A stretch of 40,261 nt of DNA from Candidatus Omnitrophota bacterium (lineage in GTDB: Bacteria > Omnitrophota > Gorgyraeia > Aquiviventales > Aquiviventaceae). Below are positions 2,712-27,658 of the stretch, one piece after another. Both the position numbers and the translations under genes were made by a program. The stretch lies in NCBI GenBank assembly GCA_016206675.1, contig JACQRD010000080.1, forward strand, positions 1 to 40,261, in the 5' to 3' direction. The notes under the pieces were generated by a model. That model searched no databases. It was not told the origin of the DNA and saw only the letters and a program-made list of their open reading frames with translations. How positions within the stretch are numbered: the stretch's first letter is position 1; every line of letters begins with the position of its first letter.

Positions 2712-4061
2712 ATGATTGGTGAAAACAAGCTCTTAACGACCTTGGCGGGCCTCGTCAAGCGGACAAAGGGGGACGGGGTCAGCGTGTGCGCGCATGCGAA
2801 GACGCGGCGCGTCTCCCGCTTCGCCTACGAAGCCATCCATCAGGATCTGCGGCAGGAGAGCATGGGGGTCACCGTCAAGGTGATCCACAACCGCCGCATC
2901 GGGATCGCCGGCGCAGAGACGCTGGAGGCGGCCAGCTTGAACCGCTGCGCGCGCGCCGCGGCGACCATCGCCCGCCACGCTCCGCAACAGCGTGACCTGC
3001 CGGCACTGCCGCAGCGCTTCCGCACCAGGGACCGGGCGGATTATGCCCCCGCAACGGCGCGCTTGCCAGCGACGGAGTGCGTGGCGGCGCTGAAAGCGCT
3101 CTTGCGCATCTGCCAGGGAGCCGGCGCCGCGCTGGCCGGCTCCCTGGTCACCGGCGAGGATGAGTTCGCGGTGGTCAACTGCGCTGGCGTGGCCTGCTAT
3201 GCCGCCTCGACGGTGGCCAGCGCGAAGCTGGTGACGATGTACCGGAGGTTGTCGGGCTACGCCAGCGGCACGCACCATGACATAGCACAGTTGGATCTGG
3301 AAGCGCTGCTGAAGCGCTCGCTCGCGCAATCGCTCAGCCAGGTCGAGCCGGTCACGCTGCCATTGGGCACCTACGAGGTGATCCTCGAGCCTGAAGCCGT
3401 AGCTGAACTGGTGAGCTGGCTGGGCTACACGGCCTTCGGGGCCAAGGCGGTTGAGGAGCGCTCCAGCTGCCTGGCGGGCCGCCTGGGCGATCAACTCATG
3501 GATCGGCGGATCACCATCTACGATGACGGCAACGACCCCGAGATGCTGCGCATGCCGTTCGACTTCGAGGGCACGCCGAAGCAGCGCGTCACACTCATCG
3601 ACAGCGGCCGGGCCGCCGGCATCGTGTATGATACGCTGTATGGGATGCGCTTCGGCCGTCCCTCCACCGGCCACGGGATGCCGCCGGGCGAAACGGAGGG
3701 CCCGCTGCCGCTGCATCTGGGCATGGCACCCGGAGCGGCCACGATGGAGGAGCTCCTGCGCGCCTGCCCGCGCGGCGTGCTGATTCCGCGGTTTCACTAC
3801 GTCAACGGCCTGCTCAACCCGCGGGAGGCGGTGATGACCGGGCTCACACGGGAGGGCGCGTGGCTCATCGAGGAAGGGCGGCTGACGCGCCCGGTGACGA
3901 CGATGCGCTTCACCCAAAGCATGCTGGAAGCGTTCAGCCATGTGGCCGGCGTCGGCAAGACGCGCGGCCTGATCGCTGACCCCAGCCAAGAGCTGGGTTG
4001 TGCCGTCGTGCCCGCGTTGCATCTCAAGAAATTTGCCTTCACAGGCAGGAGCGAACCGTGA
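2712..4061 (+). CDS. pmbA: Metalloprotease PmbA/TldE
   Basis: TldD/PmbA family ORF. The track ORF starts at GTG 2628, but its first 28 codons are only the translated palindromic element, so ATG 2712 (MIGENKLLTTLAGLVKR) is preferred. Confidence 0.9.
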   Translation: MIGENKLLTTLAGLVKRTKGDGVSVCAHAKTRRVSRFAYEAIHQDLRQESMGVTVKVIHNRRIGIAGAETLEAASLNRCARAAATIARHAPQQRDLPALPQRFRTRDRADYAPATARLPATECVAALKALLRICQGAGAALAGSLVTGEDEFAVVNCAGVACYAASTVASAKLVTMYRRLSGYASGTHHDIAQLDLEALLKRSLAQSLSQVEPVTLPLGTYEVILEPEAVAELVSWLGYTAFGAKAVEERSSCLAGRLGDQLMDRRITIYDDGNDPEMLRMPFDFEGTPKQRVTLIDSGRAAGIVYDTLYGMRFGRPSTGHGMPPGETEGPLPLHLGMAPGAATMEELLRACPRGVLIPRFHYVNGLLNPREAVMTGLTREGAWLIEEGRLTRPVTTMRFTQSMLEAFSHVAGVGKTRGLIADPSQELGCAVVPALHLKKFAFTGRSEP

Positions 4062-5269
4062 AAGGCCGCCTCGCTAGCACTCAGCACACAGCACACAGCA
4101 CACAGTGTTTCTGGTTTTTGCTGTCTGCTGTCTGCTGTCTGCTGTCTGCTGACGGATGTTCGACGCTCGTCCATATGCATCCAGCCGACCGGGCTTCGGC
4201 CGCCTCACAGCAGGCTGAGCCTCCGCTCGAGGATGGCTACACCGACTATGCGGGCATCATTCACGTCCACACCACCTACTCGCACGACGCCCATGGCCGG
4301 TTTGAGGACGTGGTGCGGGTGGCCAACGCCCAGCGGCTGGACTACGTCATCCTCACCGAGCACAACAATCTCCATCCCTTGCGCGACGGCCTGCAAGGAT
4401 GGCACGGGGCCACCCTCGTGCTTGTCGGCATGGAGATCTCCGCGCGCGACGGCCATTACCTGGCCCTGAACGTCACGCAGGAGATTAACCGCGACGCACT
4501 GACCACCCAACAGGTCATCGATGAAGTGGCGCGGCAAGGCGGGTTGGGGTTCATCGCCCACCCCTACTTCAAGCACGGCCGCTGGCGCAACTGGAACGTC
4601 CATGGCTTTACGGGGGTGGAAGCCTACAATGTGGCGCACGACACGCTGGATGAAAACCGGATGCGGCTGGTGCTCTGGACGCTGACGACGCCGGCCGAGC
4701 CGTTTTACTACTCGATTCTGGATAGGCCGTACGATCCCTTGGCGAAGTGGGACGAGCTGATCCGCCAGCACGGCCACGTGGTGGGCATCGGCTCCGCGGA
4801 TGCGCATGAGTTCCATCTGATGGGCATTAAGTTCGCCTCGTATGACGACGTCTTCCAGCTGGTGCGCACCCATGTCTTGTTGCCGGAGCCACCATTGACA
4901 GCGGAGAAGGTCTACTCCGCCCTCAAGCAAGGACATGCGTTCATGTCTATCGGCTTGATCGGCAACGCCAAGGGATTCGCCTTCGTGGCGCAGAAGGATG
5001 ACCGGGTGCTTGGCGTGATGGGGGATAGCGTGGAGCTGACCGACGGGCTGCACCTGACCACGGCGCTGCCGGCTCCGGCGAACCTGACGCTGTTTCGGGG
5101 AGGCGTGCCTGTGGCCAGCTTCACGGGAACGCGCTGGCGCATGCCGGTTGATACGCCGGGTGTCTACCGCGTCGAGGCCATGCGCCATGGCAAGCCATGG
5201 ATCTTCTCGAATCCCATCTACGTGCGCCCGGCGGCGGCGATCGTCGATAGCCCGACGCCGCATGATTAG
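4058..5269 (+). CDS. Exported PHP-domain metal-dependent phosphoesterase-like protein
   Basis: IIHVHTTYSHD and ILTEHN motifs are typical of the PHP fold. GTG 4058 overlaps the pmbA stop as GTGA and gives the signal-peptide-like N-terminus MKGRLASTQHTAHSTQCFWFLLSAVCCLLSADGC. The track start is ATG 3998. Confidence 0.8.
   Translation: MKGRLASTQHTAHSTQCFWFLLSAVCCLLSADGCSTLVHMHPADRASAASQQAEPPLEDGYTDYAGIIHVHTTYSHDAHGRFEDVVRVANAQRLDYVILTEHNNLHPLRDGLQGWHGATLVLVGMEISARDGHYLALNVTQEINRDALTTQQVIDEVARQGGLGFIAHPYFKHGRWRNWNVHGFTGVEAYNVAHDTLDENRMRLVLWTLTTPAEPFYYSILDRPYDPLAKWDELIRQHGHVVGIGSADAHEFHLMGIKFASYDDVFQLVRTHVLLPEPPLTAEKVYSALKQGHAFMSIGLIGNAKGFAFVAQKDDRVLGVMGDSVELTDGLHLTTALPAPANLTLFRGGVPVASFTGTRWRMPVDTPGVYRVEAMRHGKPWIFSNPIYVRPAAAIVDSPTPHD
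4076..4151 (+). repeat. Heptamer-periodic palindromic element of the CAGCASA/YTGTSTG family, translated as the signal peptide of the PHP protein.
   Basis: Arm 4076-4105 is (cagcaca)n, core 4106-4119 is tgtttctggttttt, and arm 4120-4151 is (gctgtct)n. Confidence 0.9.
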
Positions 5270-6272
5270 CAGACAGCAAACAGCAGACAGCAGACAGTAT
5301 TTTTGGCTCTTACTGTGTGCTGTGTGCTGTGTGCTGACGGCTATCCAAGGATGCGCCTATGCGCCATTACGGGAGGGCGCAACTCACACGCTGAAGGCGC
5401 TGCCCCAAGAACTTGTCGTGTACTACGACTACCCCGCGCACCGCCACGAGGCGGTTTCCCTGCTGATTCGGCATCACGCCGCCTTCAGCGAATACCTCGT
5501 GCGATTTCCCCTCTCTCTTCCTGCGGGCCTTAAGCCGACAGAGCCCGTGGTGGAGTTTGAATGGTTTGAATCCCATGCCGTGGGCCGGCGGGGTGCGATC
5601 GTGTTCAACCCGATCCTCGGCGGCGACTACCCGGTGGAGCGGGGCGTCTGCCGCACCTTCGCGCGGCAGGGATGGCACGTGGCACTGGTGCATCGCAAAA
5701 CCCTGAAGGTGTCTCCGGAGCATGAGGTCGCCCATCTGGAGCGGCTGCTGCGCCAGGGGATGGTGCGCATCCGCCAGGTGACGGATTGGATGACGGCGCA
5801 TGAGCGGGTGGATGCCGCGCGGCTGGGCAGTTTCGGCATCAGCATGGGAGGCATCGTCACCGTGATGGCCGCGGCGGTGGAGCCGCGCCTGCACGCGCAC
5901 GTCATCGCGCTGGCTGGGGGACCGCTCGCTGACATCCTCACCTCCTCACCCGACCGGATGATTCGCCAACCCCGCGGCTTGTACCTGGCGCGCAACCGGA
6001 TGGACCTGGAGACGATGGAACGCCTCCTGCGAGAGGCGGTCCACACCGATCCCATCCGCTTAGCCCCCTACGTCGATCGGCGGCGCGTCTTCATGGTGAT
6101 CGCGCTGGCGGATCGCACCATCGGCCGCGCCAACGCCCTGCGTTTGTGGCGGGCGCTGGGCCGCCCGCAAGCCGTGTTTCTGCCGTTCGGGCACTATACG
6201 GCCTACCTCTCTCTGCCCTATCTCCAATACGCCGGTCTGCGCTTCTTGAACGAGCAGCTCGCGAGTCCGTAG
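5262..6272 (+). CDS. Exported alpha/beta-fold hydrolase
   Basis: G-x-S-x-G nucleophile elbow (FGISMGG). ATG 5262 overlaps the upstream stop (ATGATTAG). The N-terminus MISRQQTADSRQYFWLLLCAVCCVLTAIQGC looks like a signal peptide, possibly with a lipobox Cys. The track ORF starts at 5148. Confidence 0.8.
   Translation: MISRQQTADSRQYFWLLLCAVCCVLTAIQGCAYAPLREGATHTLKALPQELVVYYDYPAHRHEAVSLLIRHHAAFSEYLVRFPLSLPAGLKPTEPVVEFEWFESHAVGRRGAIVFNPILGGDYPVERGVCRTFARQGWHVALVHRKTLKVSPEHEVAHLERLLRQGMVRIRQVTDWMTAHERVDAARLGSFGISMGGIVTVMAAAVEPRLHAHVIALAGGPLADILTSSPDRMIRQPRGLYLARNRMDLETMERLLREAVHTDPIRLAPYVDRRRVFMVIALADRTIGRANALRLWRALGRPQAVFLPFGHYTAYLSLPYLQYAGLRFLNEQLASP
5268..5336 (+). repeat. Heptamer-periodic palindromic element of the CAGCASA/YTGTSTG family, translated as the hydrolase signal peptide.
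   Basis: Arm 5268-5297 is (cagcaga)n, core 5298-5312 is tatttttggctctta, and arm 5313-5336 is (ctgtgtg)n. Confidence 0.9.
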
Positions 6273-6337
6273 TCCGAAGTCCGTAGACCGTAGCCAAACC
6301 GCTTTCGCTACGGACTACCGACTACAGACTATGGACT
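6263..6337. repeat. Heptamer-periodic palindromic element of the GTCCGTA word family, between the hydrolase gene and ispH.
   Basis: Arm 6265-6294 (gtccgtagtccgaagtccgtagaccgtagc) pairs with arm 6307-6336 at 25 of 30 positions. The hydrolase stop TAG 6270-6272 lies inside the first word. Confidence 0.85.
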
Positions 6338-6361
6338 AATCCTGCGGTACTTCCGTATAAT
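6332..6361 (+). promoter_or_regulatory. Candidate sigma70-type promoter of ispH giving a leaderless mRNA
   Basis: TGGACT (6332-6337), 18-nt spacer, perfect TATAAT (6356-6361). The ATG at 6368 is only 6 nt after the -10 box and there is no Shine-Dalgarno sequence. Confidence 0.55.
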
Positions 6362-6367
6362 GAACAC

Positions 6368-7342
6368 ATGCCTCTGCAGCGAGTGATCTTGGCCAAACCC
6401 CGCGGCTTCTGCGCCGGCGTAGACCGCGCCATCGAGGTGGTCGAGCAGGCGCTCGAGCGCTTCCCAGGGCCTGTCTACGTAAGGAAGGAAATTGTCCACA
6501 ACCCCCACGTCGTCAACGCCCTGCGGCGCAAGGGCGCGGTTTTCGTCGATGAGCTGACGGAGGTGCCCGCGGGCGCGACGACGATCTTCAGCGCCCACGG
6601 CGTCTCGCCGGCGGTCCATGAGGCCGCCCGGCAGCGGCAGCTGCAGGTGATCGACGCCACCTGCCCGCTGGTCACCAAAGTCCATGTGGAAGCCAAGCGC
6701 TTCGCCCGCGAAGGCTCCACCATGCTGCTGATCGGCCATGCCGGCCATGAAGAGGTGGAGGGCACGATGGGCGAAGCGCCGGCCTCGATCCGGCTGATCC
6801 AGACGGTGGAGGACGCCAAGACTGTCTCCGTGCCCGATCCCGACCGAGTGGCCGTCATCACGCAGACAACGCTGAGCATGGATGACACGCGGGCCATCAT
6901 CGACGCGCTGAAGGCGCGCTTCCCCAAGCTGGTGGTCCCGGCCAAGGAGGATATCTGCTACGCCACCCAAAACCGGCAAAATGCCGTGAAGGCTCTCGCC
7001 AAGGACGCCGAGGTCATCCTGGTGATCGGGGCGAACAACAGCTCCAACTCCATCCGCCTGACGGAAGTGGCCGAAGCGGCGGGGCGGCGCGCGCATCTGA
7101 TCAACGACGCCGGCGAAATCCAGGCCGGCTGGTTCGAGGGGGTTGGGTGCGTCGGGGTGACCTCCGGCGCCTCAGCCCCCGAGCATCTCGTGCAGGAGGT
7201 GGTGGAGGCCCTCAAGCGCCTGGGGGCCACGCAGGTGGAGGAATGGGAGCTGACCCGCGAAGACGTCAGCTTCGGCCTGCCCCTCGAACTGCAGAGACTG
7301 GAAGCTGGAAGCGAGAAACCGGATCCAGCCTCCAGCCTCTAG
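6368..7342 (+). CDS. ispH: 4-hydroxy-3-methylbut-2-enyl diphosphate reductase
   Basis: LytB family with the three cluster cysteines in conserved contexts (GFCAGV, ATCPLV, DICYAT). The last ~14 codons (LEAGSEKPDPASSL) are encoded by a palindromic element. Confidence 0.95.
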   Translation: MPLQRVILAKPRGFCAGVDRAIEVVEQALERFPGPVYVRKEIVHNPHVVNALRRKGAVFVDELTEVPAGATTIFSAHGVSPAVHEAARQRQLQVIDATCPLVTKVHVEAKRFAREGSTMLLIGHAGHEEVEGTMGEAPASIRLIQTVEDAKTVSVPDPDRVAVITQTTLSMDDTRAIIDALKARFPKLVVPAKEDICYATQNRQNAVKALAKDAEVILVIGANNSSNSIRLTEVAEAAGRRAHLINDAGEIQAGWFEGVGCVGVTSGASAPEHLVQEVVEALKRLGATQVEEWELTREDVSFGLPLELQRLEAGSEKPDPASSL

Positions 7343-7353
7343 CCTCCAGCTTC
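7298..7353. repeat. Heptamer-periodic palindromic element of the CTGGAAG/CCTCCAG family, covering the ispH 3' end and stop codon.
   Basis: Arm 7298-7312 is ctggaagctggaagc, the core contains GAAACCGGATC (7315-7325), and arm 7328-7353 is gcctccagcctctagcctccagcttc. It is related to 22913-22982. Confidence 0.85.
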
Positions 7354-7358
7354 GACGC

Positions 7359-7772
7359 ATGAAATCCTTCACCGAGTACCTCTGGTTCGACACTCCGAAG
7401 CGGCAGGACCTGGTCAACATCACCGACCAGATTGAGGCCCTCGTCAAGAAGAGCGGTGTTCAAGACGGCTTCTGCCTCGTTTCCGCCATGCACATTACAG
7501 CGAGCATCTGGGTCAATGACGACGAGGAGGGGCTGTGGGAGGATTTCTGGCGGCTGCTCGAGCGGCTGGCACCTTCCGGGCAGGAGTACAAGCACCACTT
7601 AACCGGCGAGGATAACGGCGACGCCCACCTGAAGCGCACGCTGGTCGGCCACCAGGCGATGCTGCCAATTACCAAAGGCGCGCTCGATCTGGGCCCTTGG
7701 GAGCAAATCTTCTACGCGGAATTCGACGGGCGGCGGAAGAAACGCGTGGTCGTCAAGATCCTGGGGCAGTGA
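7359..7772 (+). CDS. yjbQ: YjbQ/UPF0047 family protein (secondary thiamine-phosphate synthase type)
   Basis: 137-aa ORF with characteristic family length and motifs (SAMHITASIWVNDDE, HLKRTLVG, ILGQ C-terminus). Confidence 0.85.
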   Translation: MKSFTEYLWFDTPKRQDLVNITDQIEALVKKSGVQDGFCLVSAMHITASIWVNDDEEGLWEDFWRLLERLAPSGQEYKHHLTGEDNGDAHLKRTLVGHQAMLPITKGALDLGPWEQIFYAEFDGRRKKRVVVKILGQ

Positions 7773-7791: not shown

Positions 7792-9468
7792 TTAGCGGCC
7801 GGTCCACGTCACCAGGGAGGTGGTGATTTCGTCCGGATCCGGTGCGAGCGGCCCTTCCTGGCCGATGTCCAGGTGATCCGACTCCAGCTCGATGACCACT
7901 TCGTTGCCCACCACATACTGGATGGCGAGCGGATTCTGGCAGCCGTCCTCGCTCTCCGAACAAGACCGGGAGCGCAGGACCACCAGCGATTCCGGCGCAT
8001 AAATCGACCCCTGAAAGTCATCCCCGGGCCGCATGAAGATCAGGCCGTGGGGCGATTGGCGGTCCGGTCTGGCTTTGAGCGCCGATTGCAGGATTTCCAC
8101 GGTTTGCGGTGTGCCGGCATCGTCGTGGGCGGAGATGGTCGCCGACAGCTCCAGGTTCCACATGGAGCGCAGCCCGAAACTGCTGAGTAATTCCTGCGTC
8201 ATCGGAAACGTCGGCAGACCCGGCAGCTTGAAGGGAGTCCCCACCAGACTGTAGGGCGTGCTACCGGTCAAAATCAAGGTGGTGGGCTTCCTGAACACCA
8301 GCTGGGGGGGGCTGTTGATGATGTCCCCGCCCCATGAACTGAGGTCGCTGCTGGGCACGATGGCCTTGGCACACAACACGATGACCTGGCTGGCCTCCTT
8401 CCCATTGCCCCGGTCCTTGATCGACCCGTCGCAGGTTACGCCAGGCGTGTTGGAGCCCTTTTCGTCATCGCACTCGAACCCGTTGTCGATCGTCACGACG
8501 GGTTGCGTCAGCGTCAGCACGTGGTTGCAGCTGCGGGTGTTGAACATGCTCGCCGTTTCGGCGAGGCCGACGGAGACTGCCCCCTCCACATAGTCGCTGG
8601 TGCCGGCCGCGGTGGCGTTGGGGTTGACGAACGTCACACCGGTCTCCTCAGGCGCCGCTGCCTCCGGGCCGTAGCTGGTTCCCTTAACACCCTGCATCAG
8701 CTCATAGCCTGTCTTGATCCCCTTCAGATCATCGCTGGCGTTGGTGCCCCAGTTGGTGACTTTGTCCCCCAGTGGCGAGGCGACCGTTACCGGCGGGTCG
8801 CTCTCTGACAAGCCGATCAACCCGTCCAGGCGAAGAACCGAATCTCCCGCGTGGGTCGTCTGCCAGGCGTGGGTCAACGTGTTCATGATGGTCTCGCCAC
8901 CAGGTGAAGGGTTGATCGCCGAGAGCACGGAACCGCGGGATGACAGTACGTTCCCGCTGACGAACGCCTTGGAGGTCTCGGTTAACTTGCCGCCGCCGAT
9001 GGCGATCGTGCCATTCGCCCAGACGCCGGTCAACGGCCCCTCCTCCTTGACGTAGGCCGTAACCTTCTGCGGCCCGGACGAAGCGGCCGTGCTTTTGGCC
9101 TCGATCTTGTAAATGATCTCTTGCTGCGGATTGAACACATAGTTGGCCTTGTGGCGGCTCTTGCCGTTGGTGTCGTTGTAAATCTTGGCGTGGACCGGAA
9201 CAATCCTGAAGGTCGCGCCGGGCAGCGACTTCACGTCATGCGTGGTCATCGCGGTCAGGGCGTCGGTCTTGTTGTGGACGAAGAAATGATCCAGGGCGCC
9301 TTCCGACATCCAGAAGGCCTGTTGGGTGTCACGGGAGACCTGCGAAGCGCGCACTTCGGTGTTGGTGCGCTGCAGTGACACCCCCCCCAGCAGGAGGAGG
9401 ATGAGGGCGGACAGATAGACCGCGAGCAGAAAGACGGCCCCGCGGTCATTCTTGAGCGATACGTTCAT
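7792..9468 (-). CDS. Large exported or membrane-anchored protein with a PilX-like (type IV pilus minor pilin/adhesin) N-terminal domain
   Basis: Strong Shine-Dalgarno site (GAAGGAGCAAG then ATG). The N-terminus DRGAVFLLAVYLSALILLLLGGVSLQRTNTEVRASQVSRDTQQAFWMSEGAL matches the PilX_N pattern of a TM helix followed by AF..AE.GL. I recognise no family in the remaining ~490 aa, which look beta-rich. Confidence 0.6.
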   Translation of the reverse strand: MNVSLKNDRGAVFLLAVYLSALILLLLGGVSLQRTNTEVRASQVSRDTQQAFWMSEGALDHFFVHNKTDALTAMTTHDVKSLPGATFRIVPVHAKIYNDTNGKSRHKANYVFNPQQEIIYKIEAKSTAASSGPQKVTAYVKEEGPLTGVWANGTIAIGGGKLTETSKAFVSGNVLSSRGSVLSAINPSPGGETIMNTLTHAWQTTHAGDSVLRLDGLIGLSESDPPVTVASPLGDKVTNWGTNASDDLKGIKTGYELMQGVKGTSYGPEAAAPEETGVTFVNPNATAAGTSDYVEGAVSVGLAETASMFNTRSCNHVLTLTQPVVTIDNGFECDDEKGSNTPGVTCDGSIKDRGNGKEASQVIVLCAKAIVPSSDLSSWGGDIINSPPQLVFRKPTTLILTGSTPYSLVGTPFKLPGLPTFPMTQELLSSFGLRSMWNLELSATISAHDDAGTPQTVEILQSALKARPDRQSPHGLIFMRPGDDFQGSIYAPESLVVLRSRSCSESEDGCQNPLAIQYVVGNEVVIELESDHLDIGQEGPLAPDPDEITTSLVTWTGR

Positions 9469-9602
9469 CTTGCTCCTTCGGCAACCCCGCTATCCCTCGA
9501 CTCGGCCGCTCACGCGGCCTCGCTCGGGACCGGAAGCTTTGCGACCCCGGATTGCTCCGGGTGTGCGTTTATCGAGAGCCCTGATCTGCCAACACCTTAA
9601 GT

Positions 9603-10820
9603 TTACCTGATCTCGCCGCGGCGCAGCAAGCGGACGAGATCGAGGTGATGGTAGGCGCCTTTTGCGGCCGGCGTCTGGGCGCCGGCATTGGCCACCCACA
9701 GATCAGGCCACGCGAAGATCACGCTCTGGATGTTGGAATCTGGAGCGACGGCCTTTGCAATCTCTTGTGCAGCAAGAGGATCCAGCGAACCAAAGCGCGC
9801 CTGAAGACCGGCGGCCTGCCCCAGATAGCGGACATCGTACGCTGAGCTGCCTGCGGGATCTTCCAGCCCAGGCCGTTGCGGATCGCCCCGGGAGGCGGTT
9901 TGCCGGTCGCGAATCGCCGGGTCCATCGCGGCATCCGCCCGCAGCACGGCATCCGGCAGCGGCCGCGCATAGCTGACGGCGTGCTCCTGTGGATCGTCAG
10001 CCGCAAACACGCGCGCGAGCGTATGGGTCGTCTCCATCGCGATCGCCCGGCGCGCCTTGGCGTCGGCCACCACGTAATTCACGCCGACGGTGCGGCGGGC
10101 CTCGCGAATGATCCGGGAGGCTTCGTCCAGCTCGCCGGCATGCTCCAGCACGCGGCGCATCAGGAAGGCCATCGGCTCACCGGCAAAGCTGAGATCCGTC
10201 GTCGCCGCGCCGACCTGGCCGAGGGAAATCTGCGCCTCGTTGACGCCGGTCAGCAGGCCGACAAAGCCTGCCCACCCGACGCTGACAAAGGCGCGCTTCC
10301 CGATGGGGTGAATAACAAAAACGGCGGGGTACTGCTGGATGCCGGCCTTAATGTTCCAGTCCAGGTTGCGCAAATGGATCAGGCGCCCATTCGCGGTGGT
10401 CCGTCCCCAGGCGGCAAAGTTGGCGCAGGAGTAGGTACGCTCCGGAATGGCGTGCAGGCGGTACAGCTCGCGCACAGCCACACCGGAGCCCTCAGCCACA
10501 CCCCGCAGCTCCTCCCAAATCTCCGATGGAATAAAGGGCGCGGCCCGCCCCCACGCGGCGTCCAACCACCAGTTGGCGGCGAGTGTCCGCACCAGCGGCA
10601 GCTTCAAGTAGCGGCGGAAATGGCGCAGGACCTGGCCGACGGCGGCCTGCACCTGCTGCCGCAAGAGCTGCCCGTGCTGCCGGCCTATGTCGTAGGGGCG
10701 GCCCTCGAGATAGACGACCGTGAGGCCATTGATCTCTTCAACCTTGGCCGCCCATGCGTTAGCACACAGCACACAGCAGACAGCACACAGCACAAACCAT
10801 ATCCGAGCCAGATGTCTCAT
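9603..10820 (-). CDS. Exported C45-family (acyl-CoA:6-aminopenicillanic-acid acyltransferase-like) Ntn hydrolase
   Basis: Signal peptide MRHLARIWFVLCAVCCVLCANAWA. The YSCANFAAWGRTTANGRLIHLRNLDW region is typical of C45/choloylglycine-like Ntn hydrolases. Its ATG overlaps the upstream stop as ATGA (10817-10820). Confidence 0.6.
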   Translation of the reverse strand: MRHLARIWFVLCAVCCVLCANAWAAKVEEINGLTVVYLEGRPYDIGRQHGQLLRQQVQAAVGQVLRHFRRYLKLPLVRTLAANWWLDAAWGRAAPFIPSEIWEELRGVAEGSGVAVRELYRLHAIPERTYSCANFAAWGRTTANGRLIHLRNLDWNIKAGIQQYPAVFVIHPIGKRAFVSVGWAGFVGLLTGVNEAQISLGQVGAATTDLSFAGEPMAFLMRRVLEHAGELDEASRIIREARRTVGVNYVVADAKARRAIAMETTHTLARVFAADDPQEHAVSYARPLPDAVLRADAAMDPAIRDRQTASRGDPQRPGLEDPAGSSAYDVRYLGQAAGLQARFGSLDPLAAQEIAKAVAPDSNIQSVIFAWPDLWVANAGAQTPAAKGAYHHLDLVRLLRRGEIR

Positions 10821-10859
10821 GGCCTGACACTGTTTGCTGTTTGCTGTTTGCTGTTTGCT
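10761..10859 (-). repeat. Heptamer-periodic palindromic element of the CAGCAAA/CTGTGTG family, straddling the ceramidase/C45 gene junction.
   Basis: Plus-strand arms are 10761-10797 and 10830-10859. The 32-nt loop carries the ATGA stop/start overlap. In the sense direction, the first arm encodes the ceramidase tail SKQQTANSVRP and the second arm encodes the C45 signal peptide. Confidence 0.9.
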
Positions 10860-12151
10860 ACTGAATCGAGCAGTTCGATCAGGCGAGCCACGACGAGCTC
10901 GCCCGCGTGGGGCCCGTTAAAGCCCATCAGCGCTTCATACTCGCCCGACTCGTACCTCGCAGCGGGCATGCAGTAGCCGATGTAGTCGTTGGCGAACCCG
11001 GCCACGATAGGAAACAGGCCCCTCGCTCGGGCGGCTTCTTTCAGCTGCCGCCCCAGCGAGGCGGAGAGATCGCAGGGTGCGCCGAACCAGACCGCCTCAC
11101 CGATTCGCACCACCGACACCGTCGCATCATCGTCGACGAACCGGCGGCTCAGCCATGACGGCAGCGCCACGTGGCGGCTGAAGCGCAGGCGCGCCGGCGG
11201 CAGCAGCAGCCGCTGCTGCAGCGCCTGCACGGCCGAAACCGGCTGGGGGGAGGCGCCCGCCAGCACGCGCTCGGCATGCCGCGCTAACGGCGCGCCGAGG
11301 AACTCCGCCCGCTCGAAGCGATCGCCGGATTTCACCGGCGCCTGATCGCCCACCGACGCTGCAAAGAACACCGCCACCGCCTGGGGAAACCGCTGCTCAA
11401 GCTCGCGGATGACCACGCCGGGATAATCCGCCGAGAGCTCCATGTTCCAAGCCCCCAACGTCGTCGGGTGGGCCGCGAAGGCGACCATCACCGCCAACGG
11501 CGTTGAGCTGCCGCGTTCATAGAACGCGCAGACCGGCAGCTCATTGTCGACGAAGCCGCCCTCTTCCACGCGATTCGTCACCAGCCCGTCGGGGGAGGCG
11601 CAGGCGCACGCCATGGCGGCCGGCCGGCGCGCCCGGTACGCGTGACCGATGGCGCGGCTGGCCGACGAGACGATCGCGTCAAAGACCGCCGGGTCAAAGT
11701 GCCCCATGGAAATTTTCTCAAGGAATCGGCTGCCGTAGGCGCCCGGGCCCGAGTGGGTATGCGTGGCCGAGAAGAACAGGGTGGTGCCAGCCGGCAGGCC
11801 TTCGGCGGCCAGCCGCCGCTCAACCGCCGCGAAGAGCCGCTCGTCAACAATCAGCAGGTCGCCGCTGGCCATGGCGACGGTCGTCTCCTCGTCTTGGAGC
11901 ACGAGGGCCCGCACGCCCACCGGATCGTGCCGGCCGGTGGACGGACGGCCCTTGCGGCGGCTGTACCCTGCCAGCGGCACCTTCGCTGGTAACTGGAACT
12001 CCTCTTTCGCGACCCCGACCGTGACCTCAGCCCATGCCCCCAGCGGAAGACAGCTCAGAAACAGTCCGCAGACGGCAGACGGCAGACGGCAGCGCTTCCA
12101 TGTTCTGCGGACTGCGGACTGCGGACTACGGACTGCCATGCAGCTTCTCAC
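10817..12151 (-). CDS. Exported neutral/alkaline ceramidase-family amidohydrolase
   Basis: GYSRRKGRPSTGRHDPVGVRALVL and SATHTHSGPG motifs are typical of the neutral ceramidase N-terminal domain. Signal peptide ...RCRLPSAVCGLFLSCLPLGAWA. The start is GTG 12151 or ATG 12139, and either overlaps the cca 3' end. Confidence 0.7.
   Translation of the reverse strand: MRSCMAVRSPQSAVRRTWKRCRLPSAVCGLFLSCLPLGAWAEVTVGVAKEEFQLPAKVPLAGYSRRKGRPSTGRHDPVGVRALVLQDEETTVAMASGDLLIVDERLFAAVERRLAAEGLPAGTTLFFSATHTHSGPGAYGSRFLEKISMGHFDPAVFDAIVSSASRAIGHAYRARRPAAMACACASPDGLVTNRVEEGGFVDNELPVCAFYERGSSTPLAVMVAFAAHPTTLGAWNMELSADYPGVVIRELEQRFPQAVAVFFAASVGDQAPVKSGDRFERAEFLGAPLARHAERVLAGASPQPVSAVQALQQRLLLPPARLRFSRHVALPSWLSRRFVDDDATVSVVRIGEAVWFGAPCDLSASLGRQLKEAARARGLFPIVAGFANDYIGYCMPAARYESGEYEALMGFNGPHAGELVVARLIELLDSVANSKQQTANSVRP
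12062..12135 (-). repeat. Heptamer-periodic imperfect palindrome (GCAGACG versus CTGCGGA/GTCCGTA words) across the cca/ceramidase junction.
   Basis: Arm 12062-12092 is cagtccgcag(acggcag)x3 and arm 12105-12135 is (ctgcgga)x3ctacggactg. Only about 5 of 7 positions per word are complementary. It contains the cca stop (12126-12128) and encodes part of the ceramidase signal peptide. Confidence 0.75.
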
Positions 12152-19269: not shown

Positions 19270-19329
19270 GGTTGAGGGTTCAGGGGTGGGGGTTCAGGGG
19301 AATGACCCCGAACCCACAACCCTCAACCC
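19270..19329. repeat. Heptamer-periodic palindromic element of the GGGTTCG/CGAACCC family (copy 1), 16 nt upstream of the glpK ATG.
   Basis: G-rich arm 19270-19300, loop aatga, C-rich arm 19306-19329. It shares cccacaaccct[c/g]aac with 24831-24860 and 32205-32234. Confidence 0.85.
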
Positions 19330-19396
19330 AGAACACCACACGTCCTTCCGTGTGATGTAAGTATACCTGAGGAATACTACGCGGGGTTACGCGGAA

Positions 19397-20869: not shown

Positions 20870-21650
20870 GACCGCCTGCGCGCACGCGGCCGAGCACGCC
20901 GCCCGCGCGGCCGGAGCGCTACTGCTACGGCACGTCGACCGACCGAAGCGCGTGAGCACCAAGCGCAACGCCGTCGACCTCGTCACGAACATCGACCGGG
21001 CCTCCGAGCGGCTCATCTCTACGACCTTGCAGCGCGCCACACCCGCCTTCGACTTCCTCGGTGAGGAGCGCGGGGCGCGCGAGGCGGGGGCCGCCTACCG
21101 GTGGATCGTCGATCCGATCGACGGGACGAACAACTTCGTGCACGGCTTGCCGCTCTTCGGCGTCTCGATCGGCCTGGAGCACCGCGGCCGCGTGGTGGTG
21201 GGGGTGGTCTACGACCCGTCGAGGCGGGAACTCTTCAGCGCCATCCGCGGACGGGGGGCGCGGCTTAATGGACGCCGCGTGCGCGTCGCCCGCACGCGGC
21301 GGCTGGCCGAGAGCTTGGTGTCGACGGGCTTTTCCTTCAACTTCCGCCGCCACGCTCAACCCTACCAGCGGTGGTTCCGCCAGTTCCAGTGCCGCTCACA
21401 CGGGGTGCGGCGCATCGGCTCAACCGTCCTCTGCTTGGCGTGGATCGCCGCCGGGCGCCTTGAAGGTTTCTACGAACGGGACCTGTGGCCGTGGGATATC
21501 GCCGCCGGGTCGCTGTTGGTCGCGGAGGCGGGCGGGCGCGTGACGGATCTCGACGGCGGCCCGGCCAGCCTGTCGAGCGGCCAGTTGTTGGCCTCCAACG
21601 GGCGCATCCACCGCGAGATGCTGCGTATCCTGAAGAACGTGAATGGGTAA
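20850..21650 (+). CDS. suhB: Inositol monophosphatase family protein
   Basis: WIVDPIDGTNNFVHG and WDIAAG motifs. The start is ATG 20850 or 20856; the latter is 7 nt after the -10 box and possibly leaderless. The track ORF starts at 20337, inside the opposite-strand genes. Confidence 0.92.
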   Translation: MGMSVSLTACAHAAEHAARAAGALLLRHVDRPKRVSTKRNAVDLVTNIDRASERLISTTLQRATPAFDFLGEERGAREAGAAYRWIVDPIDGTNNFVHGLPLFGVSIGLEHRGRVVVGVVYDPSRRELFSAIRGRGARLNGRRVRVARTRRLAESLVSTGFSFNFRRHAQPYQRWFRQFQCRSHGVRRIGSTVLCLAWIAAGRLEGFYERDLWPWDIAAGSLLVAEAGGRVTDLDGGPASLSSGQLLASNGRIHREMLRILKNVNG

Positions 21651-21730
21651 ATGCGTCAATGAGTGAATGCGTTAGAACGTCTTAGAGTTGGCGGTTACCC
21701 ATTCACGCATCGACGCATTCACACATTTAC
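21639..21730. repeat. Palindromic element of the GTGAATG/CATTCAC word family, between convergent suhB and the rRNA methyltransferase gene.
   Basis: gtgaatgggtaa (21639-21650) is perfectly complementary to ttacccattcac (21695-21706). gtgaatgcg (21663-21671) is complementary to cgcattcac (21714-21722). The element includes both stop codons (TAA 21648-21650 and tta 21727-21729) and may act as a bidirectional terminator, although it has no T-tract. Confidence 0.8.
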
Positions 21731-22995
21731 TGTCGTTCGAGCAGCACGAACGTTTCCACGTGGGGTGTCTGCGGAAACATGTCAAACGCCCGCACCGTGG
21801 CCACCCGGTAGCGCGGGAAGGCCTCGAGCAGCACGCGCAGATCGCGAACCAGCGACACGGGATTGCACGAGAGATACGCGATACGCTGGGGCCGCGCCGC
21901 CAAGATGGCCGAGAGCACTTGCACGTGCGCGCCCTCTCGCGGCGGATCCACAATCACCGCATCCGGCTTCGCTGGCTTCAGCCAATACCGCCGGTCCATC
22001 AGCACCTCTTCCGCCCGTCCGGCGATCCACTGCGCGTTCTCCACGTCGTTGGCCGCCGCGTTAAGCCGCGCCAACTCCAGATGGTGCGGCTCGCTGTCGA
22101 TGCCGTACACCCGGCCAAACGCGCGCGAGAGATACAGCGCCGCCACCCCGACGCCGCAATAGAGATCCCACGCCACCTGATCTCGCCGCGCGGCGACGGC
22201 CTCGCGCACCGCCCGGTAGAGCCGCTCCGCTTGGATCGTGGACGACTGGAGGAAGCTCAGCGGTGCGAGTTTCACGCGCAGCCATCCGATGCGCTCCTCC
22301 AGATAGTCGCTGCCGAAGAGCCGGGTGAGCTGCTGCGGCACGGCCACATCCGCCAGGCGGTCTGTCCGGCCCCAGTACGCGCTGCAGAGCACCGGGTGCC
22401 GCTCCATCAGCCGGCCCATCAGCCCGCTGACGGCTGCCGCTGCGGCCTCGTCAAGGCCGGCGGTGGTCACCAGACACAGCAGCATGCGCTGGTCTGCGTG
22501 GCTGTAGCGGACGACGGCGTACCGGATACATCCCTGGTGGGTGCGGGGATGGTAGACCGGAAGGCCCGAGGCCTCAACCAATGCCCGCATCTCGCGCAGC
22601 ACTGGCATGACCGGTTGCGGCAGCAGCAGGCAGTCATCGAGATCGACCACGCGGCGGAAGGAGTGCCTCGCATGCAAGCCGAGGGTCACGCGGCCGCCGG
22701 CCTCGCCGAAGGTCAGCTCCGCTCTCGTGCGGTAGCGCCAGGGCTCCTCCAGCCCGATGAGCTCGAGGTCGGACGGCATGCCCGGCACGGCGGCCAGGGC
22801 GCTGCGCAGCCGCTGCCGTTTGAGGGCCAACTGGTCCGCGTAGGAAAGATCCTGCAGCGCGCAGCCCCCGCAGATCCCGAAGTACGGGCATGGCGCCTGA
22901 ACGCGCTTGAACGAAGCTGGAGGCTGGAGGCTGGAAACCGGATCGGCCTTTTCCTGCTTCCAGCTTCCTGCTTCCAGCTTCCGCTCGCTTACCAT
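21727..22995 (-). CDS. 23S rRNA (uracil-5-)-methyltransferase, RumA/RlmD family
   Basis: CPYFGICGGC iron-sulfur motif followed by a SAM-methyltransferase core (DLYCGVG, DPPREG). ATG 22995 overlaps the rhomboid stop. The track ORF (to 23772) is an over-extension. Codons 5-27 are encoded by a palindromic element. Confidence 0.88.
   Translation of the reverse strand: MVSERKLEAGSWKQEKADPVSSLQPPASFKRVQAPCPYFGICGGCALQDLSYADQLALKRQRLRSALAAVPGMPSDLELIGLEEPWRYRTRAELTFGEAGGRVTLGLHARHSFRRVVDLDDCLLLPQPVMPVLREMRALVEASGLPVYHPRTHQGCIRYAVVRYSHADQRMLLCLVTTAGLDEAAAAAVSGLMGRLMERHPVLCSAYWGRTDRLADVAVPQQLTRLFGSDYLEERIGWLRVKLAPLSFLQSSTIQAERLYRAVREAVAARRDQVAWDLYCGVGVAALYLSRAFGRVYGIDSEPHHLELARLNAAANDVENAQWIAGRAEEVLMDRRYWLKPAKPDAVIVDPPREGAHVQVLSAILAARPQRIAYLSCNPVSLVRDLRVLLEAFPRYRVATVRAFDMFPQTPHVETFVLLERQ
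22913..22982. repeat. Heptamer-periodic palindromic element of the CTGGAGG/CTTCCAG family, inside the 5' end of the methyltransferase CDS.
   Basis: Arm 22913-22936 is gaag(ctggagg)x2ctggaa, the core contains GAAACCGGATC (22934-22944), and the second arm runs to 22982 as (ctgcttccagcttc)x2c. The same plus-strand core occurs at 7315-7325. Confidence 0.85.
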
Positions 22996-23666
22996 CGGCG
23001 ACGGGGCCGCATCAGCGCCACGGCGATCATACCGGTGATGAAGCCGCCGATGTGCGCCCAAACAGCCACGCCGCCCACATCGGCCACCTGGCCGATCGTC
23101 GTCACGCCAGAGACCCACTGCAACAGAAACCACATCCCGAGAAAGAGCGACGAGGGCAGCTCCATCCGCTCCAGGAAAAAGCCCAGCGGCACCAAGGCGA
23201 TAATGCGGGCCGTCGGAAACATCAGCAGATACGCCCCGAGGATGCCGGCAATCGCGCCGCTGGCCCCCACCATGGGGATGGAGGAGCGCGGCGTGATGAG
23301 CATCTGGGTCAGCCCCGCGGCGATGCCGCTGCCGAGATACAGCAGCAGAAACCGCACATGGCCAAGCCGGTCTTCGACATTGTCGGCGAAGATCCAGAGA
23401 TACAGCATGTTGAAGCCAAGATGCAGCACACTGCCGTGCAAAAACTGCGAGGTCAGCAGCGTCAAAAACAGCTGCGGCCAGTCCAGCAGGTCGCTCCACT
23501 GGCTGACGATCCAGTGGGAGGGCACCACGCCGAAGCGGTAGACGAACGCTTCCATTGCCGGCCCCTGGCGCAATTGCTGGACGAAAACCAGGATATTGAT
23601 CGTCAGCAGCAGCCGCGTTGCCCCGGGGAATCGCTGAGAGACGATCGTATCGCGGATGGGGATCAT
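22989..23666 (-). CDS. Rhomboid-family intramembrane serine protease
   Basis: GASGAIAG (catalytic Ser) and AHIGGFITG (catalytic His) motifs, with multiple TM helices. ATG 23666 (MIPIRDTIV) is preferred over GTG 23702. Confidence 0.88.
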   Translation of the reverse strand: MIPIRDTIVSQRFPGATRLLLTINILVFVQQLRQGPAMEAFVYRFGVVPSHWIVSQWSDLLDWPQLFLTLLTSQFLHGSVLHLGFNMLYLWIFADNVEDRLGHVRFLLLYLGSGIAAGLTQMLITPRSSIPMVGASGAIAGILGAYLLMFPTARIIALVPLGFFLERMELPSSLFLGMWFLLQWVSGVTTIGQVADVGGVAVWAHIGGFITGMIAVALMRPRRRW

Positions 23667-23953
23667 CCCACCCCCTCTGCCGGCTTGCCGCAGGCAAGCC
23701 ACGAAGCCACTTCAAGCGCCAGTAGAACCTCGATGGTCGTGGCTTCGTAACGGCCTCCAAGGGCAAAAACACGTCGATGGCCGTCGGGCAGAAGTGGTGG
23801 GATCATCCCACCACCTGCCTGTCGCGGCACGTTGCGTATAAAGCCGCGTATGACGTGCCGCGGTCGCGGCGGGTGGTGAGTCTAGAAGAGGTGTCATGGC
23901 ACCCGCCGCGAGTCCCGCCGTACGGCGGGACGCAGGCAGGGGGTGGGATCATC
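23661..23953. repeat. Two tandem ~150-bp units, each bounded by inverted copies of a ~21-nt motif (GATCATCCCACCNCCT.TGCC) and with GC-rich stem-loops inside.
   Basis: Unit 1 is 23661-23807, with ends gatcatcccaccccctctgcc and ggcagaagtggtgggatcatc complementary at 18 of 21. Unit 2 is 23801-23953, with ends gatcatcccaccacctgcctg and caggcagggggtgggatcatc complementary at 19 of 21. Internal perfect stems are 23701-10/23739-48, 23823-32/23853-62 and 23865-75/23900-10, plus a 16-nt palindrome at 23914-29. Confidence 0.8.
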
Positions 23954-24791: not shown

Positions 24792-24794
24792 CGA

Positions 24795-24860
24795 GGCTGA
24801 GGGTTCGGGGTTCGAGGTTCGGGGCAAGACCCACAGCCCTCAACCCACAACCCTGAACTC
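24795..24860. repeat. Heptamer-periodic palindromic element of the GGGTTCG/CGAACCC family (copy 2), between lpxA and lpxI.
   Basis: G-rich arm to 24824 (gagggttcggggttcgaggttcgggg), loop caagac, C-rich arm 24831-24860 (ccacagccctcaacccacaaccctgaactc). Pairing is looser than in copies 1 and 3. Confidence 0.75.
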
Positions 24861-27094: not shown

Positions 27095-27658
27095 TTACCG
27101 GCCTTGAGCCGCCGGCGCGGCGAGGCGGCTGTTGAGCAGCTTGAGCACCCCATCCGTCACATCGTAGCCGGACTGCGCATAGAAGAGCCCCCGCTGGTCA
27201 AGGATGAGGGCGAAGCCGTTCGCCTTGGCGTATTCGTCGATGGCCTTCTGGATATCCTTCAGGATCTCCTGTGCCAGCTTGTCGCGGTCGCGCCGCAGAT
27301 CCCGCGCAGTGCTGGCACGGAAGCGCTGCAACTCCTCCGACTGTTCCTCGACCTCGCGGGACTTCGCCTCGCGCGCGGCGTCGTTGAGCAGCTCCAGGCT
27401 CTGGCGGATCTTCTTCAGGGCGTTGACGCGCGCCTCGAGCTCTGCTTCCTTGGCCTTGCCGCGCTTTTCCAGCGCCGCGTCTTGCGCCTTCGTCCGCTCG
27501 TAGCCGTCGAAGACCTTCGCCAAGTTCACATAGCCAATCTTCAACTCCGCCGCTGAGACAACCGGACACGGATAAGCAGACAGCAGACAGCAGACAGCAG
27601 ACAGTAAAAGCCCAAACTGCCTGCTGTGTGCTGTGTGCTGATTGCTGTATGCTCTCAT
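27095..27658 (-). CDS. skp: Periplasmic chaperone Skp/OmpH
   Basis: Signal peptide, then IGYVNLAKVF and a long coiled-coil region typical of OmpH, located immediately downstream of bamA. Confidence 0.82.
   Translation of the reverse strand: MRAYSNQHTAHSRQFGLLLSAVCCLLSAYPCPVVSAAELKIGYVNLAKVFDGYERTKAQDAALEKRGKAKEAELEARVNALKKIRQSLELLNDAAREAKSREVEEQSEELQRFRASTARDLRRDRDKLAQEILKDIQKAIDEYAKANGFALILDQRGLFYAQSGYDVTDGVLKLLNSRLAAPAAQGR
27575..27653 (-). repeat. Heptamer-periodic palindromic element of the CAGCAGA/CTGTGTG family, translated as the Skp signal peptide.
   Basis: Plus-strand arm 27575-27604 is (agcagac)n, core 27605-27620, arm 27621-27653. The sense strand encodes YSNQHTAHSRQFGLLLSAVCCLLSA. 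Confidence 0.9.

Follow-up and report, generated by a model that had tools for sequence, protein, structure and literature searches.

Tandem-heptamer hairpins at gene junctions of an Omnitrophota contig and their reading into protein termini

Two CTGGAAG hairpins at gene ends

Contig JACQRD010000080.1 carries two small hairpin repeats built of CTGGAAG-type heptamers, one at the 3' end of ispH and one at the 5' end of an rRNA methyltransferase gene, and both belong to a larger class of tandem-heptamer hairpins at gene junctions. The stretch of DNA analyzed, referred to below as the window, is the entire contig record of 40,261 nt, which is of groundwater metagenome origin; its relatives carry the labels Candidatus Omnitrophota or Omnitrophica, and the host is an uncultured Omnitrophota-like groundwater bacterium. 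The gene map is supported by Pfam (36 open reading frames [ORFs] scanned), tandem arrays were located with Tandem Repeats Finder (TRF), and hairpin stability was assessed by RNA folding against shuffled sequence (z-scores). Comparisons were made with 124 other loci from other genomes and metagenomes (given L-numbers), with 80 IspH loci from many phyla, with 120 Omnitrophota IspH orthologues, and with 120 (N-terminus) or 46 (cysteine invariance) methyltransferase homologues. The genes and features at the two sites are as follows.

6368 to 7342, plus strand: ispH (4-hydroxy-3-methylbut-2-enyl diphosphate reductase), 324 aa; Pfam LYTB at residues 6-283
7292 to 7353, plus strand: hairpin copy 1; TRF period-7 arrays at 7298-7312 and 7324-7350
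7340 to 7342, plus strand: ispH stop codon (TAG), the CCTCCAG unit with one C changed to T; the ATG of the next gene follows after 16 nt
7359 to 7772, plus strand: UPF0047/YjbQ gene (Pfam UPF0047), downstream of ispH
21727 to 22995, minus strand: TRAM-less RlmD/RlmC-type 23S rRNA uracil-C5 methyltransferase, 422 aa; TIGR00479 rumA
22913 to 22984, minus strand: hairpin copy 2, residues ~6-28; TRF arrays at 22916-22935 and 22951-22982
22989 to 23702, minus strand: rhomboid protease gene (Pfam Rhomboid), upstream of the methyltransferase gene

The NCBIfam equivalog profiles for IspH matched residues 4-310 only (NF002189, 460 bits against a cutoff of 444), and on this profile evidence the product is assigned to IspH/LytB over that range. 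Residues 311-324 (LEAGSEKPDPASSL, encoded by 7298-7339) follow directly upon ...FGLPLELQR and end at the TAG at 7340-7342. We found that tail and stop both lie within copy 1, which consists of a 5' arm at ~7292-7312 (CAGAGA CTGGAAG CTGGAAG C), a loop at 7313-7323 (GAGAAACCGGAT), and a 3' arm at 7324-7353 (CCAGCCT CCAGCCT CTAGCCT CCAGCTTC), and which folds at -29.5 kcal/mol on the sense strand and -40.3 kcal/mol on the antisense strand (z-scores of -3.7 and -4.7). Because the TAG sits in the 3' arm, in the run CCAGCCT CCAGCCT CTAGCCT CCAGCTT, it is a C-to-T unit variant; the sister copy reads SSLQPPAS across the equivalent position. Thus, the end of ispH is translated element sequence and its stop a one-base unit variant, as a preliminary description made from the sequence alone had proposed. 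Across the 80 IspH loci from many phyla, the tail past F-x-LP-x-x-[LI] consists of 2-20 unrelated residues. The UPF0047 ATG that follows the hairpin in the window has no Shine-Dalgarno sequence.

The methyltransferase matched TIGR00479 with 234.8 bits (cutoff, 183.55) over residues 27-414 and model positions 49-432, and since the match begins at model position 49, the protein has no TRAM domain. Family profiles begin at residues 27-36, and C36, C42, and C45 are invariant in the 46 homologues. On the strength of this Fe-S cysteine cluster and the S-adenosylmethionine-dependent methyltransferase domain, the TRAM domain being optional, the protein is assigned to RlmD/RlmC (RumA family). Copy 2 is translated on the minus strand as KLEAGSWKQEKADPVSSLQPPAS, residues 6-28; the earlier placement in codons 5-27 was off by a trivial single residue. 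On the gene strand, its 5' arm reads GGAAG CTGGAAG CAGGAAG CTGGAAG CAGGAAA, its loop AGGCCGATCCGGTT, and its 3' arm TCCAGCC TCCAGCC TCCAGCTTCG, and it folds at -46.5 kcal/mol sense and -47.4 kcal/mol antisense with a z-score of about -5.5 (the z-scores over both sites run from -3.7 to -5.8). Most homologues are 401-404 aa long and begin M-x5-LLxQEKAAYxRVxxPCPYFGTCGGC, and copy 2 has the conserved QEK(A) at the end of its 5' arm and F-K-R-V-Q-A-P-C immediately after its 3' arm. By comparison with one orthologue or another, it lengthens a disordered N-terminal tail, just ahead of the Fe-S cysteines, by about 15-21 residues.

The stop codon of the rhomboid gene (TAA, 22991-22989) overlaps the methyltransferase ATG (22995-22993) in the manner ATGGTAA. 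One could suppose that the methyltransferase in fact starts downstream of the hairpin, such that copy 2 would be an untranslated intercistronic element and only the ispH tail would be translated. The hairpins at the same junction in L081 and L125 do lie upstream of the canonical ATG, and a stem of -46 kcal/mol from codon 5 would hinder free initiation. However, there is no in-frame ATG, GTG, or TTG from the hairpin to the invariant cysteine cluster (CPYFGICGGC), the next TTG lying past the cluster, so the hairpin must be translated if the methyltransferase is made. Furthermore, the conserved F-x-R-V-x-x-P-C directly follows the hairpin, and the ATG at 22995 stands in the same stop-overlapping context as the accepted start of the element-free L083. 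We therefore consider a downstream start highly improbable.

Structure models of the two proteins, made from the alignments (AlphaFold2 [AF2]), are confident overall, with predicted local distance difference test scores (pLDDT) of 87.3 and 84.5, but gave low confidence to both segments, which are predicted to be disordered. The pLDDT was 58 and then 41 for IspH residues 311-324; methyltransferase residues 1-30 scored 35, 41, and 56 per block of ten.

The relation between the two copies is far beyond chance. The word CTGGAAGCTGGAAG, allowing up to two mismatches, occurs seven times, all within the two sites, against 0.27 expected. The plus-strand core reported earlier, the 11-mer GAAACCGGATC, occurs exactly twice in the window, once per loop (7315-7325 and 22934-22944, both on the plus strand), against 0.02 expected, and is absent from the 124 other loci. 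The likeness of the two peptides had been attributed to near-palindromy, but copy 1 on the plus strand aligns better with copy 2 on the minus strand (score of 37) than with copy 2 on the plus strand (score of 29); the peptides are alike because the copies share their orientation and frame relative to their genes. The loop word alone runs in the opposite relative orientation, reflecting either a flip of the loop between inverted arms or parallel CTTCC-to-CCTCC changes in the sense-strand 3' arms.

The same junctions in relatives and the family elsewhere

At the ispH junction, both filled and empty sites were found. The IspH of the closest relative (L124, 91% identical) ends LELTRTVV and is followed by a 17-nt spacer with no hairpin; that of L001 ends LELTQ in an ATGA overlap with UPF0047, again with no hairpin, and the hairpin is also missing from the junction in read-run contig X3. 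The tail is missing from the IspH orthologues nearest to that of the window (91%, 86%, and 81% identical). Nevertheless, at least 10 of the 120 Omnitrophota IspH orthologues have LEAGS/LETGR-type tails derived from a hairpin at this junction (QKLEAGS, QKLETGR, and QKLETGRATLKAPASSF, each at the stop, and QKLEAGGRKPDGQPL...RPASSLQHP, likewise terminal), and the DNA under these tails is a CTGGAAG/CTTCCAG hairpin. The stop lies in the 5' arm in L123 (TAG in CTAGAAG) and in the 3' arm in L122 (TAG in CTTCTAG), as it does in the window, and in L121 the frame reads through to an ATGA overlap, the UPF0047 ATG overlapping the ispH stop as in L001; with stops falling at different units, the hairpin-derived tails are 2 to 30 aa long. 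Since several Omnitrophota orthologues carry both tails and hairpin DNA, the ispH hairpin is old, with a patchy distribution, and not a recent private insertion; stops have been made in it repeatedly by single-base changes. Thus, of the proposal that the segments are lineage-specific insertions outside the conserved fold, the position outside the profiles and the absence from close orthologues stood, whereas a recent private insertion at ispH did not.

Three further observations concern IspH ends. Many orthologues terminate in ELQK(L) (CAGAAGCTG...). In L002, the ispH/UPF0047 junction has a one-armed (GCTAGGA)x3 array at 10929-10952, which places three Shine-Dalgarno-like copies of AGGAG directly upstream of the UPF0047 ATG. 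The tails of L008 (3770-3805) and L011, from metagenome-assembled genomes (MAGs) of Terriglobia/Acidobacteriota, read EKNSPDPASRQ and EKAAGDPATRH and resemble the EKPDPASSL of the window; the DNA there has no heptamer hairpin, so we judged this likeness a coincidence around the word CCGGATCC.

The ispH hairpin is also present in a co-occurring variant strain (run X1, covering 7255-7393), with five substitutions (7285 C>A, 7297 A>G, 7304 G>A, 7318 A>G, and 7344 C>T); over the last 19 ispH codons, three are synonymous and one is nonsynonymous, which is only four events. X1 and X3 are Logan contigs, which break at repeats, and no insertions or deletions, such as a phase-variable contingency locus would show, are reported in them.

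The rhomboid/methyltransferase junction is empty in L083, with an ATGGTGA overlap kept, and holds an AAGTCAA-type hairpin in L081 and a TTGGAAG-type hairpin in L125, both between the genes; among the 120 homologues, only the window has the hairpin inside the methyltransferase ORF. Comparison of filled and empty sites at the two junctions gave no clean target-site duplication, although in L081 a duplicated junction motif flanks the hairpin; compared with a miniature inverted-repeat transposable element, the element as a whole is the inverted repeat. The gene order LpxC/FabZ-LpxA-LpxI-rhomboid-methyltransferase is kept in L081 and L083.

Beyond these junctions, the exact two-arm CTGGAAG pattern was found at 36 metagenome loci with a GC content of 0.35 to 0.71 and unrelated loops. 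We counted their contexts only where Pfam or a recognizable N-terminus confirmed them, ORF length alone being too noisy at high GC. In L085 (~5870-5930), the hairpin lies in frame in MutS domain III, all five MutS domains running in one frame across it; in L111 (~9078-9112), it lies in frame in the catalytic domain of a class III adenylate/guanylate cyclase; and in L112, it forms the C-terminal tail of an NrpR-like protein. Judged by their domain matches, L085 and L111, from other uncultured bacteria, carry truly internal insertions in conserved domains. The analogy with Rickettsia palindromic elements drawn in the preliminary description, of in-frame palindromic insertion into conserved enzymes, fits the family at large; the two copies in the window are at termini and junctions and not inside folds. 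Many other copies lie directly upstream of recognizable starts (LipA, SufS, NuoL, GltB, and PurH), and several of these contigs also have other heptamer hairpins.

A wider class of tandem-heptamer hairpins

CTGGAAG, rightly recognized as common to the two sites, is only one unit type in a larger class. The window contains ~15 hairpins with arms of three to five tandem 7-mers (two with 8-mers), covering ~3% of the contig, and at least eight unit types within 40 kb: CTGGAAG, AGCA[C/G]AC, AGTCCGT, GCAGACG, GGTTCAG, TCCAAAT, and AAGCACC and the 8-mers CGTGAATG and GTTCAATA. The 15 hairpins have folding energies of -30 to -65 kcal/mol, and typically every seventh position is mismatched. TRF placed convergent pairs of period-7 arrays at 15 sites. 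There are 19 period-7 arrays in the 40-kb window and 6 each in L001 and L002 (21 kb each), whereas the other 78 IspH loci have 22 in 1.28 Mb; periods 6, 8, and 9 show no excess. Sixteen of those 22 are in L003 (11 arrays in 21 kb) and L009 (5 arrays in 12 kb), two loci from MAGs labelled Terriglobia in which hairpins of the same class are thus dense. Either these labels are mistaken or the class extends beyond a single phylum. The units of these two loci (AAGTCRA, GTGACA, CAGAAGT, and ATTGYCG) are partly common to Omnitrophota-like loci.

The hairpins lie at gene junctions, nearly all of them co-directional, and occupy about half of the junctions in the window. About half overlap coding ends, namely, both CTGGAAG copies and six others. 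The other members of the class, and the four signal-peptide regions that fall on them, are the following.

4076 to 4151, plus strand: E1 (AGCACAC / TGCTGTC), inside the 5' end of a PHP-domain gene; reads VKGRLASTQHTAHSTQCFWFLLSAVCCLLSADGC, a lipoprotein-like signal peptide
5268 to 5336, plus strand: E2 (AGCAGAC / CTGTGTG), encodes a hydrolase signal peptide, MISRQQTADSRQYFWLLLCAVCCVLTAIQGC
6264 to 6338, plus strand: E3 (AGTCCGT / CTACGGA), supplies the hydrolase stop TAG at 6270-6272; the rest intergenic, upstream of ispH
10761 to 10859, minus strand: E5, 5' arm (CAAACAG) forming the ceramidase tail SVANSKQQTANSVRP up to its stop, loop the ATGA stop/start, 3' arm the AAT signal peptide MRHLARIWFVLCAVCCVLCANA
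12068 to 12136, minus strand: E6 (AGTCCGC / CTGCCGT), supplies the TAG that ends the CCA-adding enzyme gene and also codes for the start of the ceramidase (its N-terminus)
19270 to 19340, minus strand: E7 (GGGTTGA/GGGTTCG type), noncoding, HAMP gene/glpK junction
21638 to 21727, no strand: E8 (8-mer CGTGAATG), in the gap where the inositol monophosphatase and methyltransferase genes end convergently
24794 to 24858, minus strand: E10, noncoding, LpxA/LpxI junction
27575 to 27653, minus strand: E11 (CAGCACA / CTGTCTG), wholly inside the 5' end of OmpH/Skp; reads MRAYSNQHTAHSRQFGLLLSAVCCLLSAYP
31822 to 31904, minus strand: E12 (8-mer GTTCAATA), noncoding, S18/L9 junction
32169 to 32231, minus strand: E13, noncoding, SSB/S18 junction
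33635 to 33761, minus strand: E14, compound hairpin (TCCAAAT, AAGCACC, TTTGGAA), noncoding, L25/Pth junction
39260 to 39291, minus strand: E15, array of CTGTGTG type with one arm only, immediately before the IspE start
4058 to 4160: signal-peptide region of the PHP-domain protein
5262 to 5345: signal-peptide region of the hydrolase
10745 to 10820, minus strand: signal-peptide region of AAT
27565 to 27658, minus strand: signal-peptide region of OmpH/Skp

Four secreted proteins or lipoproteins (the PHP-domain, S9-like hydrolase, AAT/C45-like, and OmpH/Skp proteins) have signal peptides that are encoded in full by a single hairpin family, whose 5' arm, (CAGCACA)n, is polar (STQHTAHSTQ in E1, E2, and E11, all three contained entirely within the 5' ends of their genes) and whose 3' arm, (CTGTSTG)n, gives a near-identical hydrophobic core, LLSAVCCLLSA or VLCAVCCVL. 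The GTG of the PHP-domain gene at 4058 overlaps the PmbA stop (GTGA) and has an AGGAG Shine-Dalgarno sequence, and the OmpH/Skp ATG at 27658 has GAGGAG 6 nt upstream. L001 has ...LSLAGC at the PHP-domain position. The hydrolase lipobox, xQGC/TGC, is kept in L001 and L002, and their h-regions are heptamer arrays of CTGTYCA and TACTRCC. The ceramidase/AAT junction carries CAAACAG/CTGTGTG in the window and GTGACAC/TGTCACC in L001 and L002, such that the hairpin and its placement are kept while both arms have changed. E3 also has a positional orthologue (L001, 9810-9907). Hairpins of stop-containing units (E7, E8, E10, and E12-E14) stay intergenic.

These signal peptides, with near-identical h-regions, invite the view that the encoded peptides are the selected product, the hairpins supplying modules (signal peptides, tails, and linkers) and the IspH and methyltransferase tails being functional, for example, in partner binding or stability. 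The persistence of LEAGS-type tails in many IspH orthologues and the three synonymous changes out of four in the variant strain would agree with this view. Against it, the closest IspH orthologues do without the tail, tail length is free to vary, the N-terminal segment is confined to the window among the methyltransferase homologues, both segments are predicted to be disordered, and about half of the class is noncoding. We regard selection for the peptides as improbable.

It is still less probable that the hairpins are Rho-independent terminators or attenuators punctuating operons. The stems are strong and GC rich and lie at gene ends, and E8 separates convergent genes. However, an intrinsic terminator combines a GC-rich stem with a T-run; neither CTGGAAG hairpin is followed by a T-run, and a terminator scan was negative at both. 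Many hairpins, moreover, fall within the coding 5' end of the gene that follows, and others separate genes that are normally cotranscribed (S6-SSB-S18-L9 and lpxA-lpxI).

Two candidate signatures of selection were dropped. Asymmetry between the strands, with G-U pairs on one against A-C mismatches on the other, was considered as a sign of selection at the RNA level, but its direction was inconsistent over the 15 hairpins, with no consistent difference in sense and antisense stability and both CTGGAAG copies weaker on the sense strand. The stop-free nature of translated units is uninformative as a coding signature, because by our own estimate a random 7-mer at 65% GC is stop free on a given strand ~84% of the time.

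A scan of the window against Rfam 15 gave only tRNA and a c-di-GMP-I riboswitch at the gathering score and no hairpin matches. A sigma-70-like promoter match, TGGACT-18-TATAAT (6332-6361, plus strand), has its -35 hexamer within the 3' arm of E3, and 7 nt separate its -10 hexamer from the ispH ATG; the unit families TTGACTT and GTGACA likewise resemble TTGACA.

Origin, possible role, and comparison with known repeats

Taken together, these results lead us to favor, with a probability of roughly 60%, the reading that the two sites are copies of one small hairpin repeat family within a larger, lineage-typical class of tandem-heptamer junction hairpins that resemble repetitive extragenic palindromes (REPs) and are tolerated in unconstrained protein termini. 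In the CTGGAAG family, the arms are three to five tandem 7-nt units, CTGGAAG in one and CCTCCAG or CTTCCAG in the other. The hairpins sit where neighboring genes overlap or nearly touch (ATGA, ATGGTRA, and GTGA), and as a consequence any DNA added there must be read by one of the neighbors. At ispH/UPF0047, the ispH frame enters the hairpin and ends at the TAG that a single C-to-T change made in the 3' arm; at rhomboid/methyltransferase, the overlapping ATG is the original one, with the hairpin following codon 5. A translation filter may then decide which hairpins persist: stop-free hydrophilic units would survive at the termini of cytosolic enzymes, pairs of polar and hydrophobic arms (CAGCACA / CTGTCTG) would survive as the n- and h-regions of signal peptides, and stop-containing units would remain intergenic. 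Any role of the element would be played as nucleic acid, in the manner of a REP-like intercistronic hairpin, the encoded peptide being a passenger. A ribosome finishing the upstream gene would have to melt the stem, which may favor coupled reinitiation downstream, and the hairpin may also buffer mRNA decay. Within arms, slippage or conversion would homogenize the units and so leave the periodic 1-in-7 mismatch, and hairpin families would replace one another at fixed junctions.

How the hairpins multiply is the point at which the evidence divides. An origin without copying, in which replication slippage in steps of 7 nt expands a chance local repeat into each array on the spot and intrastrand template switching then builds the complementary arm, would make them by-products of replication and repair in this lineage, tolerated where harmless. 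Units differ among junctions and, at one junction, between genomes; one-armed arrays occur at the L002 ispH junction, in the L001 hydrolase signal peptide, and at E15; the periodic mismatch shows homogenization within arms to be faster than that between arms; and the ELQK(L) ends of IspH could seed a CTGGAAG array. Native sequence can also look like the units: the LLxQEKA of the methyltransferases and the CAGCAAGACAAGGCC / CCAGCCCTCCAGC of L083 resemble the arms in the window. On the other side stand the 11-nt loop sequence common to the two CTGGAAG copies, which is unexpected by chance, and the recurrence of unit families at nonorthologous sites (five AGCA[C/G]AC copies in the window, GTGACA and AAGTCRA units in L001, L002, L003, L009, and L081, and CTGGAAG hairpins in 36 unrelated contexts), which argue for copying or conversion between loci. 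We think a purely in-place origin unlikely, although the one-armed arrays and the likeness to native codons argue that in-place slippage contributes.

Several points weigh against the reading that we favor. Nothing that would account for copying was found, neither a transposase nor a target-site duplication nor a terminal motif, and no RAYT (IS200/IS605-like) domain among the 36 window ORFs scanned with Pfam, which represent only 40 kb of the genome. No RNA run was found to contain this organism, and the strand asymmetry, inconsistent across the 15 elements, gives no evidence of selection at the RNA level. The native LLxQEK codons are microhomologous to CTGGAAG CAGGAAA AG, and since the conserved QEK(A) falls inside the 5' arm of copy 2, part of that arm may be native rather than inserted sequence. 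Finally, the synonymous excess in the variant strain could give a very weak hint of constraint on the peptide.

A bolder extension of our reading, possible but doubtful, is that tandem-heptamer hairpins renew themselves at the gene junctions of Omnitrophota, and of other uncultured lineages with high GC, and regularly give rise to new coding sequence, a polar arm and a hydrophobic arm after a start codon making a ready-made signal peptide and hydrophilic families giving enzyme tails and internal loops. With a unit of 7 nt, an array that grows or shrinks by one unit changes the reading frame, and the hairpins might thus even act as frameshift switches at gene starts genome-wide.

The Rickettsia palindromic elements (RPEs) are sequence families of 100-150 bp, confined to Rickettsia and not built of tandem units. 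Reportedly described by Ogata et al. in 2000, they are, like the present hairpins, short palindromic repeats read in frame in conserved genes, where they form lineage-specific segments outside the conserved fold. The elements here have the in-frame palindrome and the position outside the fold, but their size (57-72 nt), 7-nt units, and host set them apart from the RPE consensus as described; in addition, they have 7-mer arms and many unit sequences under one architecture, are concentrated at junctions, and in the window affect protein termini only.

REPs are thought to act as stabilizers of mRNA 3' ends and as protein-binding sites. Like the elements described here, the REP/BIME sequences of enterobacteria and the REPINs of Pseudomonas are abundant imperfect palindromes between operon genes that form species-specific families; unlike them in position and architecture, REPs are extragenic by definition, have no tandem-unit arrays, and are mobilized by RAYT transposases (PMC3116915 and general background). 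Eight hairpins in the window, the two CTGGAAG copies among them, overlap coding sequence and so are not extragenic.

The GGGAATC heptamer arrays of Xanthomonas, of which there are 70-75 per genome as convergent pairs (Rehm et al. 2015, PMC4692102), are likewise facing tandem heptamer arrays capable of forming stem-loops or cruciforms and present in many copies per genome, and the repeat type of a locus (single or paired) is preserved among related genomes while its length varies (PMC4692102). They consist of a single G-rich unit per genome, have been studied as G-quadruplexes, and are reported to be intergenic (PMC4692102), whereas the hairpins described here share the paired convergent 7-mers, lack the single G-rich GGGAATC unit, have many units (none selected for runs of G), and overlap coding sequence in about half of cases. 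TAACTGA repeats (Beggiatoaceae, cyanobacteria, and Bacteroidetes) and the cyanobacterial STRR heptamers are also tandem 7-nt arrays just upstream of starts and sometimes over ORF ends, and a role in translation has been proposed for TAACTGA arrays (MacGregor 2015, PMC4679880); however, these have one unit per genome, are almost always direct (one indirect among ~170 sets), and contain a stop, so that they are rarely translated (PMC4679880). Borg tandem repeats also evolve rapidly and add disordered protein segments, but within genes their unit lengths are divisible by three and they are direct, without a complementary arm (PMC9879509). Thus, RPEs are closest in behavior and the Xanthomonas arrays closest in architecture, and the present elements belong to none of the sequence families compared, being set apart by many unit types under one architecture, junction targeting, and frequent translation, including that of signal peptides. 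In the literature we found no description of such a hairpin class in Omnitrophota; the search was incomplete and is no proof of novelty, and the class is apparently undescribed.

The wider class is a more interesting result than the finding at two sites. If our reading is correct, standard annotation overlooks, or silently merges into ORFs, a repeat class that makes up a considerable share of these genomes (~3% of this contig and about half of its junctions). For Omnitrophota MAGs, this would bear in practice on how starts and stops are called, on protein-length statistics, and on the prediction of signal peptides. It would be a second, independent case after RPEs of palindromic repeats inside protein genes, with a simple rule predicting where families survive, and a concrete instance of coding sequence, whole signal peptides included, arising de novo from nongenic repeats. 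In addition, the question of whether translational coupling is enforced by intercistronic hairpins where genes overlap becomes tractable in this system.

Other features of the window were noted in passing. The c-di-GMP-I riboswitch (9477-9577, minus strand) scored 56 bits, the gathering score being 35. Immediately downstream of it is an ORF of 558 aa (7792-9468, minus strand) for which Pfam gave no match; its N-terminus is hydrophobic and pilin-like, and neither of the syntenic loci L001 and L002 has it. A single 441-aa ORF (25748-27073, minus strand) encodes an LpxC-FabZ fusion, and LpxI, rather than LpxH, is encoded. Two palindromes of ~130 nt (929-1062 and 2581-2707) constitute a separate repeat type with TCGGTGACGT... 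units; they flank the first TldD/PmbA gene, fold at -76 to -80 kcal/mol, and are mutually 84-89% complementary.

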